A DNA stretch of 64,000 nucleotides, taken from the NCBI GenBank assembly GCA_963662465.1, contig OY759599.1, positions 6,400,001 through 6,464,000 on the forward strand, read 5' to 3'. Each line of letters begins with the position of its first letter. Position 1 is the stretch's first letter. The notes beneath the pieces were generated by a model. It was not told the origin of the DNA. It saw nothing but the letters and a program-made list of their open reading frames with translations, and did not search any database. Made by a program: the position numbers and the translations under genes. The DNA is from Desulfatiglandales bacterium (lineage in GTDB: Bacteria > Desulfobacterota > DSM-4660 > Desulfatiglandales > Desulfatiglandaceae). Shown here in pieces: positions 51,513 through 58,375 of the stretch.

Positions 51513-53978
51513 ATGAAAAGATCCATTGTTCTGAGTATGTGGCAATTATGGCTTATTTTGTTTTTTTTTACATCGACTGTTTATGCGGATTACGGGTTGA
51601 TGCTTGGTTCTTTTAAGGATCAGGCTAATGCACAAAAATATTTGAATGAGTTCCAAAATGGAAACAAGGTTTCGACAGAGAATGCCTTTATCGAAAACAT
51701 ACAGATGCTCGGAAAAGGCATTTGGTACAGGGTCTGTTTGGGACCCTTTGTCAGCAGGGAGGATGCTGTAAAAAAACAGATTTTTCTTCAATCCAGGGGG
51801 CATGACAGCGTTGTTGTTTCCATAAATGCGCCTGAAATACGCCTCTCATCGGGAAAATCTCTTGAATCTTCCCCCCAACCTCTTTCATTAATACCATCCG
51901 AGCCGGATGCTGCTCCCTTGAAAAATGACCCGCCGTTGATTGCCGCTGACGCTTCAGGACCCAAGGATGTCCATGCCGGGACCGCAACGTCATTGCCTGT
52001 TGATGGATCATCACATTTGCCCGAGAGAGAAGACAGCGTTTCCACGAGTGAATCGACACTACAATCGAATACCCATGAGGGACAGACGGCTTCAACGGGA
52101 TCACAGGCAAATTCGATGATTGTATATCCGGGGGACATCCTGAATATCGAAGTCCCCACCCAGAAACAGATGAGTCAAGATTATGACGTTGATCCCGAGG
52201 GTAGGATATTTATGATGTCGGTCGGGGAAATCAGGATTGGCGGTCTTGATCTTTCTTTGATTCAGAAGAAAATTACAGTCCTTCTGAAGCAGCTTATTCC
52301 CAAAGAAGAAAAACCGACCGTAACGCTTGTTGGCAGAATGCGGTATATCAATATCAGAGGCGGGGTCAATTACCCGGGTTGGTACCGCGTTTCAGCAGTA
52401 TCTAACCTGGATGATCTGGTGGAAATGGCGGGTGGCCTTGTTGCGGGAGCGGATTTTTCGGAAATCAAAATCAAACGTCCCACAAAGACCGGGTTCCGGG
52501 ATATAAACGCCAGAGGTCGGATTTCCCTGGAACCAAATGATGTCCTGATGGTGCCCACGCCCCAAAAATATGAGAGAAAGATTGACAGCGGGGATCTTTT
52601 GTTTATCAACATTCCTGAAAGAGCAAGTGGTGAACCAGGTTTATCCGAGATAGAAAGAAAGGTGACGCAAAACAAGATTGAGGTTGATAAATCCGGCTAC
52701 ATCTACATTCCGGACTATGGGCACATTTATGTCAAAAATTTACTGACAACAGAAGTATCCAAGATTATTACAAACCGGCTTCCAAAATACCTTGCTCGTT
52801 CCGCAAAAGTGCATGTGAATATCATAGAGAAAAAGCACTATGTGCAGATCGGCGGCCATGTGGCAACACCGGGGTGGTATAGTGTTCCGGAATCGGATAA
52901 TATTCAGGCGGCCCTGAGTGTGGCGGGCGGCGCCGTGGACGGCGCCATTTTGAGCAAGGTGACCGTAACCCGTAAATGGGGGGGGCAAACTCGAGAGGTA
53001 AGGGTCAATTTATACCAGTTTACCGTTACGGGAGATGTCAGGCTGCTTACTCCTGTCCACGAAGATGATTCTATTTTTGTGCCCATTTCGGCGGCTTTCG
53101 GAGACGTGAAACGTACGCTCAGCAACTGGCAACCGCCCCCATCGAAGTTGGAGGAGGATACGGGCAGCAAGGTTCGCATCTTTGGTGCTGTGGGCAGTCC
53201 CGGAGTTTATGAACCCAAGGAGGACATGAATATCCTCGATTTGTTGATCCTGGCCGGCGGAAACAGGGATGACGCCGATTTGGCCAAAACAATGCTGATT
53301 CGGGAAAACAAGACTCAAATTTATGACCTGAATGCTTTGATACTTGGAAGCACACAGGGTAAAGCGAAGATACCGAAGGTCCAAAACGGGGATGCCGTTT
53401 ATGTCGCCTTTGTAAAAAAGGCAAGCTATGAGAAACAGGACCCTAAGGAAATGATAAGGATTTTCGGAGCGGTTAAAAAGCCGGGCATTTATGAGGTCTC
53501 TCCAGATATGAACATCATAGACGTATTTTCACTGGCGAACGGGCAGACTTATGATGCTGATTTGAAAAAGGTGAATATCGCAAGGGCAAACGGTACATTT
53601 GAAATGTTGGATTTGCAGGAATATTTTGACGCGAAACTATCCGACCCAACGAAACTACCGATAATCAATGCCAGCGATACCGTATATGTTCATTATCTGC
53701 AACATCTGAGTTTGGAGAAAAAGGAGCCTGTTTACCTTTTGGGCAAAGTCAAATCTCCAGGGCAGTATCAATTGGCAACTGGGGGCATGACGGTTTATCA
53801 AATGATTGCATATGCCGGTGGCCTCGATGAGTGGGCTGATACTGAAAACATCATGGTTATTCGGATGGTTAGTGGAAGACAGCGCAATATTCACTATAAT
53901 CTCCGAAAGGCGCTTTCGGGAAAATATCCTGAGCTGAATATTAGATTGAGATCTTTTGATACCATTTATGTGCCATAA
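51513..53978 (+). CDS. SPOR-domain-fused polysaccharide export (OPX/SLBB) protein
   Basis: Sec signal; LGSFKDQANA...WYRVCLGPF.SR..A (SPOR); two Poly_export-like segments; multiple GxV..PG.Y SLBB repeats; ends DTIYVP. Confidence 0.88.
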   Translation: MKRSIVLSMWQLWLILFFFTSTVYADYGLMLGSFKDQANAQKYLNEFQNGNKVSTENAFIENIQMLGKGIWYRVCLGPFVSREDAVKKQIFLQSRGHDSVVVSINAPEIRLSSGKSLESSPQPLSLIPSEPDAAPLKNDPPLIAADASGPKDVHAGTATSLPVDGSSHLPEREDSVSTSESTLQSNTHEGQTASTGSQANSMIVYPGDILNIEVPTQKQMSQDYDVDPEGRIFMMSVGEIRIGGLDLSLIQKKITVLLKQLIPKEEKPTVTLVGRMRYINIRGGVNYPGWYRVSAVSNLDDLVEMAGGLVAGADFSEIKIKRPTKTGFRDINARGRISLEPNDVLMVPTPQKYERKIDSGDLLFINIPERASGEPGLSEIERKVTQNKIEVDKSGYIYIPDYGHIYVKNLLTTEVSKIITNRLPKYLARSAKVHVNIIEKKHYVQIGGHVATPGWYSVPESDNIQAALSVAGGAVDGAILSKVTVTRKWGGQTREVRVNLYQFTVTGDVRLLTPVHEDDSIFVPISAAFGDVKRTLSNWQPPPSKLEEDTGSKVRIFGAVGSPGVYEPKEDMNILDLLILAGGNRDDADLAKTMLIRENKTQIYDLNALILGSTQGKAKIPKVQNGDAVYVAFVKKASYEKQDPKEMIRIFGAVKKPGIYEVSPDMNIIDVFSLANGQTYDADLKKVNIARANGTFEMLDLQEYFDAKLSDPTKLPIINASDTVYVHYLQHLSLEKKEPVYLLGKVKSPGQYQLATGGMTVYQMIAYAGGLDEWADTENIMVIRMVSGRQRNIHYNLRKALSGKYPELNIRLRSFDTIYVP

Positions 53979-54016
53979 AGCGGGATACTCGCAACCCAAA
54001 GATGAAGTTGTAGGAG

Positions 54017-54050
54017 TCAGTTGTCAGTTGTCAGTTATCAGTTGTCAGCG
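54017..54050. repeat. Left arm of TCAGTTG heptamers
   Basis: tcagttg tcagttg tcagtta tcagttg tcagcg. Confidence 0.9.
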
Positions 54051-54062
54051 CTGGAGGCTATT

Positions 54063-54408
54063 TTGAAATTTGAGGATTTGGAAGTATGGAAGAGGTCTTC
54101 ACGATTATGTGCAGATTTGTATAAACATTTTCAAGATATTAAAGATTTTGGGTTTCGTGATCAGATTACCCGGTCTGCTTTATCAATACCAAGCACGTGC
54201 AGAAGGTGTGGAACGAGACTCAAAAAAAGATTTTGCCAGGTTTCTGCAATATTCAAAAGGTTCTTGTGGAGAATTAAGAACACAAATTTATATTGGTATT
54301 GATATTGATTATATTGAACCAGCAGTTGGCAAAAAATGGATTCAGGAAACAAAAGAACTCTCGGCGATGCTCGTAGGTCTTAGCAAATCCCTAAAGAAGA
54401 TAAATTAG
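54063..54408 (+). pseudogene. Four-helix-bundle (23S rRNA IVP family) gene, frameshifted near 54196
   Basis: GGAGG + TTG; MKFEDLEVWK...DQITRSALSIPS then other frame AEGVER...FL.YSKGSCGELRTQ. Confidence 0.9.
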
Positions 54409-54423
54409 TATCGATATGCTTTT

Positions 54424-54444
54424 ACTGACAACTGACAACTGATA
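54424..54444. repeat. Right arm of CTGACAA heptamers
   Basis: actgacaactgacaactga is the exact reverse complement of 54017-54035. Confidence 0.9.
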
Positions 54445-54577
54445 CCATATAACGATTTTCTTGTTTTTTGTGACAGAAAACTCAAGTGATAGGCTATAAA
54501 GGCGCAGAGGCGCAGAGAACAGAGGAAAGATGACGGAGAATGGATGGGCAGTTTGCAGCATAGTGGCTTAGGGGAAC

Positions 54578-54817
54578 TTGATGCCAACGATTAAGGATAT
54601 CAGTGGGGCTTACCGGTTTTTCTTTTACAGCTTCGACTGTAACGAACCAAAGCATGTCCACGTACAACGAGAGAAATTTACATGCAAGTTTTGGCTTAAG
54701 CCAGTTGCTCTCAGCAAGAATTATGGCTTTCCTCCAAAGGAATTAAGAAATATTTTCAAAATTGTAAGGTCCAATCAAAACAGAATTGAGGAGGCCTGGA
54801 ATGAACATTGCGATTAA
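54578..54817 (+). CDS. DUF4160 family protein
   Basis: YRFFFYS....EPKHVHV.....CKFWL.P. Confidence 0.85.
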   Translation: MMPTIKDISGAYRFFFYSFDCNEPKHVHVQREKFTCKFWLKPVALSKNYGFPPKELRNIFKIVRSNQNRIEEAWNEHCD

Positions 54818-55061
54818 TCAAATAGAACCGAGGCTATTGGATGTTCGGGTCTCTGAAGAGGAAATCATCGTTTTTCTTGCTGATGGGCGAACAGTAAGTG
54901 TCCCTCTGGCTTGGTCTTGGCGACTATCAGAAGCATCACAGAAGGCACGCCAAAACTTTCAAATAATCGGAGATGGGCAAGGTATCCACTGGCCGGATGT
55001 GGACGAAGATATAAGCGTTGTGGGTATGCTGGGCGGTTTACCGGCCCGGCGACCATCATAA
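54801..55061 (+). CDS. DUF2442 family protein
   Basis: LADGRTVSVPLAWSWRL..A...R.N....G.GIHWPDVDEDISV; overlaps DUF4160 gene. Confidence 0.87.
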   Translation: MNIAINQIEPRLLDVRVSEEEIIVFLADGRTVSVPLAWSWRLSEASQKARQNFQIIGDGQGIHWPDVDEDISVVGMLGGLPARRPS

Positions 55062-55219
55062 GGGGCATAGGTCAGGAAAAGACAGAGAAAAGATGCCTTG
55101 GGGGGCAAAGCTCCTTGCCTGATCTCATATAAAACGGGCGAACCAAAATACTGCGTAATCTTGCGCAATTATTTTTTGCTGAGGCCCTGAAAAGCCAGAA
55201 AGCTCAAAGCATGGAAGCT

Positions 55220-55370
55220 TCAAAGCTTGACAGTCCAGTAAAAAGTCCCCAAGCCCGTCACCCCCGCGAAAGCGGGGGTCCATAAACCCCTGATGTTACT
55301 GGATTCCCGCGTTCGCGGGAATGACGAAAACGGGTCATTGCTGACTTTTTACGAGTTTGTCAAAGCTTGA
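55220..55370. mobile_element. Nested MITE/REP-like element flanked by 11-bp direct repeats
   Basis: tcaaagcttga at 55220-55230 and 55360-55370; outer IR 55227-55247/55343-55363 (17/21); inner hairpin pair 55256-55282/55300-55326. Confidence 0.85.
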
Positions 55371-55383
55371 AGCGAAGTCAAAA

Positions 55384-57267
55384 ATGAACAGGAATGATGT
55401 TGCGATAGATTTGAAAAAGAATTCAAAAAATAATTCTGCCGTCATATCAGGCGTTGTGGCTTCCCTCTTATTGCCCATCGTGTTCTCTTCTTTTTTTTTT
55501 CTTATCGTCAATCAACTTACTTCTGCATTCGGTGAACAGAGCCAAGCCAACGTGGGTCGAGTGTGTCTTTATTCACTGTTACAGAGATATCCCATTGCTT
55601 CAAGTGAAATACAATCGCGTCTATCCGGCGGACAACGAAACACACGTTCAAACAGGCTGATCGAAGTGCCTGAACATACGTTCATTCAAAAATCCACGAT
55701 AAAGATCAATGATCTCATCGTTTCTCCTGCTTGGGGCGTAAAGATGCAAGGCCGGTCTGTCAACCCTGTATATACTCCCATCCACGCCCATGAAAATGTG
55801 AGAGATGTCGAAGTCAGGACCGGGCGTGATAATGTGGAAGAGAAATTTTACACTGCTTTCAACCTGACCAAAACCCGCAAAGATCCTATGAAATCTCTAT
55901 CTGCTAAGATACCGCCACGCGAAAATCCGTCCGGCGGCGATAATCTATTGGAAGGCGCCGGGGGCTCACTTGGCGATTTTTTTGAGGGTGGAACTGTTTC
56001 CACACCTTCAAAAGGGGCGTATCGAATTGAAGTCTCCCCCAGGATAAGTATAAAAGAAGAATATGATGACAATATTACATTGCTCAATAAAAACCCGATT
56101 GGGGATTATTCAACAACGGTTTCTCCCGGCCTAAAGATAAGTGCTGATTCGGGCAGCAATGGTTTAGACCTGGATTACGAATTTGGTTGGGTTAAATACC
56201 ATAAAAGCACCAAAAATGATTATATCCAACATCTCGGAACTTTAGGATTATGGCAGAAAATCGGCAGCCACTTAACTTTTCGACTGACAGACGCCTATAT
56301 TAAGTCAAATGATTATCTTGCAGATCTTAATCAATTCCCAGTGACCCAAAGGGTTGCTAATACGCTAAGTGCTTATCAAAGAAATGACGCCAAGGCGGTT
56401 TTGGATTTCCAATTTGGCCCCAAAAACCATTTTGTGGTCGGATATATTTACAATATTTTGGATAATGATGATCCGTCCTTAGAAGATGCAAGGGAGCAGG
56501 GTCCATCTGCAGCGCTATCATACTGGTTCACCCAGAAAGATGGACTGGATTTGAGCTATGAGAATCTCAGGTACATTTATGATCAGCCTGATTATTATAA
56601 TAATTGGAAAGACCTGAACGCACATAATATGCGGGGCGCCTATGTTCACCAATTTGGAGTTCGTTCAACCGGTAGCCTTTATTATGCACTTTCCATACGG
56701 AAATCTATCGATTTCCCCATACAATATGAGATCCATGATGTCGGGGCAGGTTTTGACCACCGCTTTTCATCTTCTACCTCTTTATCATTGGGTTTGGGAT
56801 ATTATAAACCAACCGGCGATACTTCATTGCCCGGAACACCCGCTTTGAACCCTGGCGTAACTTCTTTGATTGAGCTGAGAAAAAGTTTTCAACACGGGAG
56901 CGTTTCTTTAGGTGTCACGTCTGGATGGGATGATGGTTTATTGGAGGTGATACCCAGGGGGTTTACAAAGTTTGGGGGGGCGTTTGGTCGCTTTGATTAT
57001 GAACCGATTGAAAATGTGAGTGTTTTTGGTGGGGTAACATATCGAAAAAATAGATATGCGAATGAAGAAATCGACATTCTTCTGAATCAGGCAACGGAAG
57101 ACGAAACGTATCAAGGTCGGTGCGGTGTAGATTGGAGGCTTTGTCGATGGTTTACGTTGGGATTGCTTTATACTTATACGAACCGGATAAGTCCTGATCC
57201 TGAAGATGAGTTTGTGGATAACAGAATTGGGTTGATTTTTACGGCGGAAAAACCTTTTAAATGGTAG
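55384..57267 (+). CDS. Outer-membrane beta-barrel associated with EPS export (start uncertain)
   Basis: VSPRISIKEEYDDNI, D..T.VSPG, alternating aromatic strands, C-terminal YTYTNR.S....EFVDNR and terminal aromatic residue. Confidence 0.8.
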   Translation: MNRNDVAIDLKKNSKNNSAVISGVVASLLLPIVFSSFFFLIVNQLTSAFGEQSQANVGRVCLYSLLQRYPIASSEIQSRLSGGQRNTRSNRLIEVPEHTFIQKSTIKINDLIVSPAWGVKMQGRSVNPVYTPIHAHENVRDVEVRTGRDNVEEKFYTAFNLTKTRKDPMKSLSAKIPPRENPSGGDNLLEGAGGSLGDFFEGGTVSTPSKGAYRIEVSPRISIKEEYDDNITLLNKNPIGDYSTTVSPGLKISADSGSNGLDLDYEFGWVKYHKSTKNDYIQHLGTLGLWQKIGSHLTFRLTDAYIKSNDYLADLNQFPVTQRVANTLSAYQRNDAKAVLDFQFGPKNHFVVGYIYNILDNDDPSLEDAREQGPSAALSYWFTQKDGLDLSYENLRYIYDQPDYYNNWKDLNAHNMRGAYVHQFGVRSTGSLYYALSIRKSIDFPIQYEIHDVGAGFDHRFSSSTSLSLGLGYYKPTGDTSLPGTPALNPGVTSLIELRKSFQHGSVSLGVTSGWDDGLLEVIPRGFTKFGGAFGRFDYEPIENVSVFGGVTYRKNRYANEEIDILLNQATEDETYQGRCGVDWRLCRWFTLGLLYTYTNRISPDPEDEFVDNRIGLIFTAEKPFKW

Positions 57268-57348
57268 GGGTTGTGGGAATCATTTCCGGTGGGGGAAATT
57301 GATTGAACTTAAAGCCTGGCCAAAGCTATTCGGAATTTTTGAAAAGAT

Positions 57349-57658
57349 GAATATCGAATATCGAACAAGGAATGTAGAATGACGAAGGGGAAGTCAGAGT
57401 TTGATCTTGAAGACCGTTTGATTGATTTCGCTGTGCGTATTATTCGAACATCAGAATCTTTGCCGAAAAGTAAAGTTGGGAAACACATTGCTGGTCAACT
57501 TATTCGTATCAGAGCCGACCTGATAAAACCAGCATCGAAACTCGAAGCTTTGATTGATGAAAGTGACCAACTGATTTCAATTTTTGTAAAAAGTGTAAGC
57601 ACCGCCATGCAAAATTTAAAGAAAACTTCATAATTCGACATTCCCTTGTTCAATATTC
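57349..57658. repeat. Inverted GAA-N4 heptamer arms enclosing the second four-helix gene
   Basis: 57356-57387 vs reverse complement of 57626-57658: 28/32 matches plus one bulge. Confidence 0.9.
57379..57633 (+). pseudogene. Four-helix-bundle gene with in-frame internal deletion
   Basis: DLEDRLIDFAVRII...IAGQLIR joined directly to the last helix; the usual SGTS..NY.EA...DF.HK core is absent. Confidence 0.82.
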
Positions 57659-57893
57659 TGCGGTTCAAAAACATATATAATTCCAAATAATTACAGGTCT
57701 TCCTGATAAATTTTTCGGTAAAGAGTTGCATGGAAAAGCACGATTGTATAGAATCGTAAACATAGCGTGAGGTTAAAGGCTGCCAATTCTAAGCTGAGAG
57801 GAAGAATCGCCCCATGATGAAAACAACCGGCATCGCCTGTTTGGCCTGATGCTCATGGATTATTTTTCTGACCGGGGCTTTCGAGTTCCCAGA

Positions 57894-58375
57894 TGGCCAC
57901 TTCAAAATCCCCCACTTGTGGCCACCCCAAAATCCCCCACCTGTGAAGGTGGTCGTGTAGGATCTTGACCGTGGCAATGGAAAGATCTTCAGCGACAAAA
58001 CGGCTACACTTTATTCTTTTTTCTTCCCTATGGCAAGCTTTTCTGCAGCCTCCTTTAGCTTGTAGCTTTTTCCTTCAAATTTGAGCAAATCGCCTCGGTG
58101 GAGCAACCTGTCAAGGATCGCAGAGGATGCGGCATTGTCTCTGAGCAGTTTACCCCAGTCCTCCACCGGACGGTTCGGTTTGATGTTATGAGTGTTCTTT
58201 TTCTTTTGGAATAACGATTCAGTATGATATCAAGAAGATCATCTGCCGCATGTTCAGGGACCCTTTTTCTCAGGAAAAGATCATCTATTATCAGCAAGTC
58301 TGCTTCTGAAAAAAGCTTTGTTATTTTTTTTGTCTTCCCTGTTTGGGCAGCTTCTGAGAGTGGACTCGCAAATTG
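57894..58375 (-). mobile_element. istB: IS21-family right-end remnant (istB fragment + subterminal repeats)
   Basis: DLLIIDD, LITSNR, frameshift, EDWG..L.D...SAILDRLLH...FEGKSYKL, stop 58011; two 25-bp direct repeats 57894-57918 and 57919-57943. Confidence 0.85.

Follow-up and report, generated by a model that had tools for sequence, protein, structure and literature searches.

Two decayed four-helix-bundle cassettes with inverted heptamer arms as likely passengers of an unnamed insertion sequence family in a Desulfatiglandales genome

MITEs (miniature inverted-repeat transposable elements) and passenger-carrying non-autonomous derivatives of insertion sequences (IS) are short, occur in many copies and keep only the ends of an autonomous IS around variable interiors. 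The single-strand transposons of the IS200/IS605 and IS91 families have no terminal repeats, carry subterminal hairpins, insert 3' of a tetranucleotide and have a fixed tetranucleotide at the right end. A further type of unit is the intervening sequence (IVS) in the 23S rRNA gene of Coxiella burnetii, which, in the sections of the report drawn on here, is described as a decaying PF05635-type open reading frame (ORF) in the loop of a ~28-bp inverted repeat with 5' tandem heptamers, whose stem is cut by RNase III in vitro (PMC4990558). The PF05635 proteins resemble Avd, which has a related four-helix fold, according to the relevant part of PMC10053308. G-rich heptamers of Xanthomonas and Nostoc were described between aligned ORFs, with the G-rich strand near the stop codon and in convergent pairs; that paper (Rehm et al. 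2015, PMC4692102) interprets the arrays as quadruplex motifs, and its main text has 0 occurrences of the term "four helix". Up to now, both the intergenic heptamer arrays and the PF05635 family have been without explanation, and in the literature covered, mostly openly accessible, no paper was found that connects a four-helix gene either with an IS family or with arms located elsewhere than in rRNA. Here, we describe two four-helix-bundle genes, each enclosed by inverted arms of tandem heptamers (cassettes 1 and 2), in a 64,000-nucleotide stretch of a Desulfatiglandales bacterium (GCA_963662465.1, contig OY759599.1, positions 6,400,001 to 6,464,000), referred to as the window.

In each of the two units, the order is left IS end, arm, gene, arm and right IS end. 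Such units are read as heptamer-armed four-helix cassettes lying within two IS ends (the shell), which would have been inserted as DNA at a CTAA-like core by the transposase of the IS family acting in trans and have since decayed. We assign a probability of about 0.68 to this reading. The ends are shared with full-length elements, the order is nested, the units are dispersed in multiple copies and the shell of cassette 1 has exact filled and empty sites. A first-pass annotation of this DNA had considered a mobile cassette with insertion and loss, which is retained, as well as looping-out at the mRNA level, which is not; it had overlooked that IS ends lie beyond the arms, and these ends offer a likely route of movement for the window cassettes.

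Cassette 1 is located 3' of a polysaccharide export gene with SPOR, Poly_export and SLBB domains (wza, 51513..53978; all features named by such coordinates are on the plus strand), whose stop codon is part of the insertion core (53975..53978), which reads ATAA here and CTAA/CTGA/CTAG in the family consensus. The left end of IS subfamily 1 (53979..54003), a short GC hairpin and AACCCAA common to autonomous elements in genomes G465 and G004, is followed by the 5' heptamer arm of the TCAGTTG type (54017..54048), the four-helix-bundle gene 1 (PF05635/TIGR02436; 54063..54408) with a likely TTG start after GGAGG, the inverted 3' arm (54424..54453) and the right end (54456..54499), which terminates in a degenerate copy of the CTAA core. 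Cassette 2 is located 3' of the gene for a BBP2_2 beta-barrel export protein (55357..57267) and comprises a degenerate left end of IS subfamily 2 with CTGG in place of the CTAG/CTAA core (57316..57345), a 5' arm of the GAATATC/GAATGTC type that extends into the gene start (57347..57387), the 84-aa gene 2 (57379..57633), the inverted 3' arm (57626..57658) and a degenerate right end (57659..57750), which aligns with the intact copy L263 and whose outer boundary is approximate. The position of both cassettes 3' of export genes in the same orientation, as first annotated, is borne out by Pfam matches (Poly_export/SLBB and BBP2_2). The pairing of the arms was likewise reproduced, with 19/19 complementary positions in cassette 1 (54017-54035 / 54424-54442) and 28/32 plus a one-base bulge in cassette 2 (57356-57387 / 57626-57658), and the local alignment scores of 20 and 21 exceed the maxima of 13 and 14 that were reached when the 3' flank was shuffled 1000 times by mononucleotide.

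The ends of subfamily 1 enclose a gene for a 521-aa protein in G465, and in G004 they flank a deleted copy; these element ends align with positions 53979-54003 and 54456-54499 of the window, while in G009 the parent gene adjoins the right end. An intact copy with left end, arm, gene, arm and right end is present at another locus (L170), and deleted copies are found at L202 and L204. Examination of the 43 arrays of this genome (G000) that stand behind the subfamily-1 hairpin revealed TAA, TGA or TAG one base ahead of this short GC hairpin in 40 cases. Only 18 of these 40 triplets close a long frame, and the triplet is preceded by C in 31/40, as against 942/5999 real stop codons; the target is therefore a DNA word rather than a translated stop. 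There are 22 occurrences of a fixed right end that terminates in CTAA, and tandem right end-left end junctions are present. For three filled shell-1 sites of G000, whose interior is a different one and contains no gene, the empty counterpart is present in G010 and/or G005 and has a single (C/T)TAA core; four further G000 sites were tried and no pair was obtained. An empty site has one 4-nt core and a filled site one at each end, an arrangement in which target duplication and an element-encoded core look alike. The shell-less copies most closely related to cassette 1 (L171 and L173) suggest that the shell was acquired in the lineage of cassette 1. Identity of the left end with an integron attC site was also considered and was dropped, the base after CTAA being variable.

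In subfamily 2, a left end following CTAG/CTAA and a right end closing in CTAA were found in 35/209 genomes of the class, and the reversed pattern was found 0 times in the same search. In the congener G004, at least four full copies of 1.75 kb are delimited by these ends; they are 97.6-100% identical and occupy different sites, and the encoded protein matches the subfamily-1 profile with an E-value of 5e-27. L263 represents the intact nested form of this shell with its cassette, relative to which the window ends are degenerate. Within G000, shell ends were found near 49/563 arrays, as compared to 9/563 control spacers. The interiors of both shells vary and contain several heptamer types, 8-mer arrays, hairpins like repetitive extragenic palindromes, or nothing (L408-L437, L523-L552).

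Both four-helix genes of the window are broken. Alignment with a 96%-identical intact copy from congener G001 shows that 2 nt are missing from gene 1 in the assembled sequence, which causes a frameshift near 54196; the gene exceeds the PF05635 cut-off in two frames with both fragments. Gene 2 lacks ~126 nt in frame relative to L071, which has the same arms; it has no Pfam match and its TIGR02436 score is sub-threshold (15.5 bits vs a cut-off of 24) because of this internal deletion, whereas the intact copies L017 and L071 score 113.8 and 81.9 bits. The earlier assignment of both genes to the PF05635/TIGR02436 four-helix family thus holds, for gene 2 by way of its intact relative L071. The closest proteins were found in named deltaproteobacterial/Desulfobacterota assemblies.

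The proposed insertion and loss of a mobile cassette found support in the presence of one cassette at unrelated loci, in empty sites and in internally deleted copies. An intact copy of cassette 1 sits between atpB and atpE in a congener, and internally deleted copies consisting of arm, gene stub and arm are frequent across the genus. Comparison of filled and empty sites at 16 deleted-copy loci of relatives gave an orthologous G000 junction for 10 of them (9 distinct sites), the other 6/16 being unpaired, and all these junctions were without the element; three contain another repeat and one a left-end remnant. At the G000 sites orthologous to L104 and L120, one and the same junction is occupied by a different repeat element in each genome, and some junctions have therefore been re-used. 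At the wza-BBP2 junction of G009, the whole 1.37-kb block is absent and a convergent gene follows BBP2. No wza orthologue carrying the cassette was found among 40 relatives, of which G009 alone is close.

Concerning the arms, G000 contains 582 arrays of period 7, comprising many sequence types, as compared to 7-120 arrays for each of the other periods from 4 to 12. For a survey of flanks, 407 loci were gathered and 279 distinct full-length genes with 170-nt flanks were kept, leaving out fragments, fused genes and contig-edge genes, and these were reduced to 242 at <90% identity; the set is not random, having been obtained with the window proteins as queries and with two clades over-sampled. 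Matched inverted heptamer arms were found at 167/242 intact four-helix genes and at 3/250 ordinary G000 genes, the arms being a trait of the family; when arms were swapped between loci, matched inverted arms remained in 34/242. Among the first 120 of the 242 loci, the period is 7 in 63, 8 in 11 and 9 in 4, and periods of 5, 6 and 10 were found in none; a minority of four-helix genes are hence flanked by period-8 (11) or period-9 (4) arms. The modal copy number of 4-5 per array is set by the detection threshold and was not used. The replication leading strand carries 66% of 302 array junctions vs 59% of 2687, a bias too weak to use. Upstream of a four-helix gene, G000:C1 contains ~25 tandem copies of a ~105-nt unit, each with a heptamer array (86281-88930 and 8147975-8149070), and the last ~15 kb of this contig duplicates the region near 85-101 kb. 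In G009 (L138 7945-9206 and 12797-13787), arms of the cassette-2 type enclose an Rpn-like gene with a second palindrome, and the gene flanked by such arms at L138 is one that we take to be exosortase-like; arms of this type can bracket other cargo.

With regard to the earlier suggestion that the encoded protein may bind the arms, the heptamer tracks the protein: among pairs with 70-90% protein identity, the heptamers differ at no more than one position in 91-93%, and among pairs below 50% identity in <=3%. Co-inheritance alone accounts for this relationship. The comparison of repeat type with protein phylogeny used a quick tree. A residue-to-base code was sought by mutual information in 46 and 25 protein clusters, which returned only hydrophobic markers of a deep split into two subfamilies and none beyond the 95% null at the 50% level. 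When the search was made register-free and confined to the larger subfamily, with 52 and 30 clusters, the highest Z values were 2.9 and 2.7 vs a 95% null of 3.7. Power being low, such a code was not reproduced rather than refuted.

An alternative to transposition by IS ends is an mRNA intervening sequence, in which pairing of the arms within the operon transcript would form a stem for RNase III to cleave, with looping-out of the gene or segmentation of the operon as the outcome. The Coxiella IVS described above, with the same gene family, 5' heptamers and a stem of 28 bp that RNase III cleaves in vitro, provides a precedent in the consulted part of that work (PMC4990558), and both window units fold as RNA better than 100/100 shuffles (z -3.9 and -2.8), although this is what any inverted repeat would show. 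Paired arrays are also strictly polar: the partner lies on the inner side in 108 cases and on the outer side in 3. Against it, 411/520 arrays have no partner within 600 nt, and filled and empty sites alternate among close relatives. Selected pairing of a sense transcript would give more G·U than A·C mismatches, yet the counts were 179 G·U vs 207 A·C in the 167 stems and 45 vs 52 in 57 G000 hairpins, which argues against selected mRNA pairing; two small controls gave 14 vs 3 for tRNA stems and 11 vs 3 for terminator-like hairpins (Fisher p 0.026 vs the arms). Judged by these sequence comparisons, the loop-out of mRNA put forward earlier was not borne out, and the wobble and array data favour symmetric DNA sites. 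RNase III cleavage of the stems may occur as an incidental side effect, and an mRNA-level function appears improbable.

Somewhat less improbable, though still unlikely, is that the heptamer cassette moves on its own, by means of the four-helix protein and a host or element enzyme, possibly via RNA and a reverse transcriptase as for Avd in diversity-generating retroelements (DGRs), with the IS ends being mere neighbours brought in by tandem insertion and deletion. Such a route would suit the majority of intact cassettes, which are shell-less, and the placement of arrays, since a sense gene ends just 5' in 132/167 (median 13.5 nt) and junctions are co-directional for 400/488 arrays vs 2694/3866; the Avd resemblance of PF05635 (in part of PMC10053308) and a weak NF033474 match (E 0.094) point the same way. 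At many independent loci, on the contrary, the boundaries of shelled copies coincide exactly with the IS cores and the inner joints are identical, and therefore the whole shell moved; moreover, no link to a reverse transcriptase was seen, none having been specifically tested for. Least probable is that the arms are host regulatory elements of extracellular polysaccharide (EPS) export genes, with the four-helix genes encoding their regulators. Both cassettes lie 3' of EPS export genes, and several further copies may be at similar loci (clustering near 7.11-7.12 Mb), but both genes are broken, the wza-BBP2 junction is empty in G009, and copies occur at atpB-atpE and near many unrelated genes. 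The broken genes and the orthologous site without an element largely refute this regulatory role. The association of the cassettes with EPS export genes is incidental, because one congener has an intact copy at the atpB-atpE junction and another congener has no element at the wza site.

Under transposition by the IS family, the candidate enzyme is the unannotated 520-540-aa parent protein of the shells, a putative transposase with relatives in 4688 protein clusters among 8000 candidates scored. No Pfam, PHROG or PDB sequence match was obtained besides a C-terminal winged helix, which was confirmed by fold, and searches with the whole-protein fold returned winged helices only; neither a Y1/HUH family match nor a PF02486 (Rep_trans) profile match was found. 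A model of the first 395 residues (predicted local distance difference test score, pLDDT, 88.7) gave as top Foldseek match, a weak one, the Rep_trans initiator 4CIJ, which also occupies ranks 5 and 9, with 4CWE at rank 23. The invariant residues Y142, Y144, Y327, K325, R334 and E336 in alignment A7 of the parent proteins are no more than candidates for a role in nicking. On this weak fold match, mobilisation in trans would proceed probably via strand nicking at the core, as in Rep_trans initiators. The cassette probably landed behind the stop codon of the transposase gene, which abuts the right end, and subsequent deletion of that gene would have left shell and cassette. Adjacency of shelled copies to stop codons may result from a core that contains TAA/TGA/TAG together with counter-selection of insertions that disrupt genes. 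For the arms, a role as symmetric double-stranded DNA sites of the inner cassette is most likely, and they would probably be bound by a putatively pentameric four-helix protein; the solved family members 2GSC and 2RLD have five chains. A distant member of the IS family, with an intact frame of 554 aa, its own ends and three interrupted copies, is found at G000:C1 7566362-7568326 (minus).

Several observations weigh against transposition of the window units by this family. The 4CIJ match has an E-value of 0.007, a probability of 0.66 and template modelling (TM) scores of 0.20/0.27, and unrelated rows score alike. No close copy of the subfamily-1 transposase was found in G000, where the subfamily-1 profile detects only the distant 554-aa relative with other ends. 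The cores in the window are degenerate (ATAA and CTGG), no clean empty site for shell 2 was obtained in 26 tries, and 10/24 copies of the cassette-1 family, including the intact L017, are without either end under a strict pattern. An rRNA tiling control for the wobble test failed, with 20 vs 18. Among the 279 intact four-helix genes, only 1 has a shell of type 1 and 2 have both ends of type 2, and in shell-less cassettes a C precedes the stop in 8/63, showing no bias; on these two counts, targeting of all heptamer cassettes by the IS was discarded as a proposal. The IS accounts for the two window units and part of the local arrays and not for the whole class, and because only 3/279 intact relatives are shelled, the shells leave unexplained how most cassettes of the class move.

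With regard to the surroundings, a DUF4160 and DUF2442 gene pair (54578..55061) is located beyond cassette 1, within the 1.37-kb block that is absent at the orthologous G009 site; such pairs are often interpreted as toxin-antitoxin-like. A nested palindrome with outer arms of 36 nt and inner arms of 32 nt is inserted into a short heptamer-like run at 55217-55373. Two 25-nt direct repeats and a minus-strand IstB-like remnant (E 0.037) at 57894-58297 are likely an IS21-type fragment that breaks synteny 3' of cassette 2.

This locus ties a unit of gene plus arms to the ends of a very common, unannotated IS family, and thereby names a candidate enzyme, a CTAA-like core as target, and minimal ends of ~25 and 45-90 nt with interchangeable cargo. 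If the likeness to Rep_trans is true, an element with short ends and no terminal repeats that is orientation-specific and integrates at a tetranucleotide would represent a new transposition chemistry. In a wider form, which we put forward only tentatively and consider doubtful, a large share of the unexplained intergenic heptamers would be driven by an IS superfamily that is as yet undescribed and whose transposase is Rep_trans-like (non-DDE, non-HUH): the CTAA/CTAG-targeting ends of this superfamily would capture Avd-like cassettes, the pentamer would bind the arms as DNA, and cassettes and gene-less remnants would be delivered precisely behind stop codons.

When compared with known systems, the window units resemble the Coxiella 23S IVS, as far as the consulted part of PMC4990558 describes it, in that their ORFs are of the PF05635 type, are decaying and are enclosed by a terminal stem with heptamer repeats. 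Unlike that IVS, they lie between protein-coding genes rather than in an rRNA gene (positions 53900-58100 gave no rRNA match, the flanking genes are protein-coding, and the single Rfam match is at chance level), spread as DNA, have no wobble preference and are enclosed by IS ends. The polarity is the same as that of the arrays of Rehm et al. 2015, in the portion of PMC4692102 drawn on, whereas here many repeat types are present and are tied to the gene and to IS ends. The units differ from DGRs, since no reverse transcriptase, template or variable repeat is present among the ORFs at 51.5-58.3 kb, and from DGR Avd proteins by an NF033474 score of 13 vs a cut-off of 80. The shells share with IS200/IS605 and IS91 the lack of terminal repeats, the hairpin ends, the tetranucleotide target and the fixed tetranucleotide at the right end, and are distinguished by a parent protein that, at 520-540 aa and without a Y1 family match, is not a small Y1 HUH transposase. 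As in MITEs, the units are non-autonomous and multi-copy with both ends common to an autonomous element; unlike MITEs, their outer ends have no terminal inverted repeats, as the left end is unlike the right end and not complementary to it, the inverted arms lie in the interior, a CTAA core is used, and the parent protein has no Pfam or PDB sequence match besides the winged helix. Thus, a real and mobile feature joins two known kinds, an IVS-type cassette and a non-autonomous IS derivative, and the window units are most plausibly a pair of passengers, now decayed, that likely belong to an unnamed IS family.

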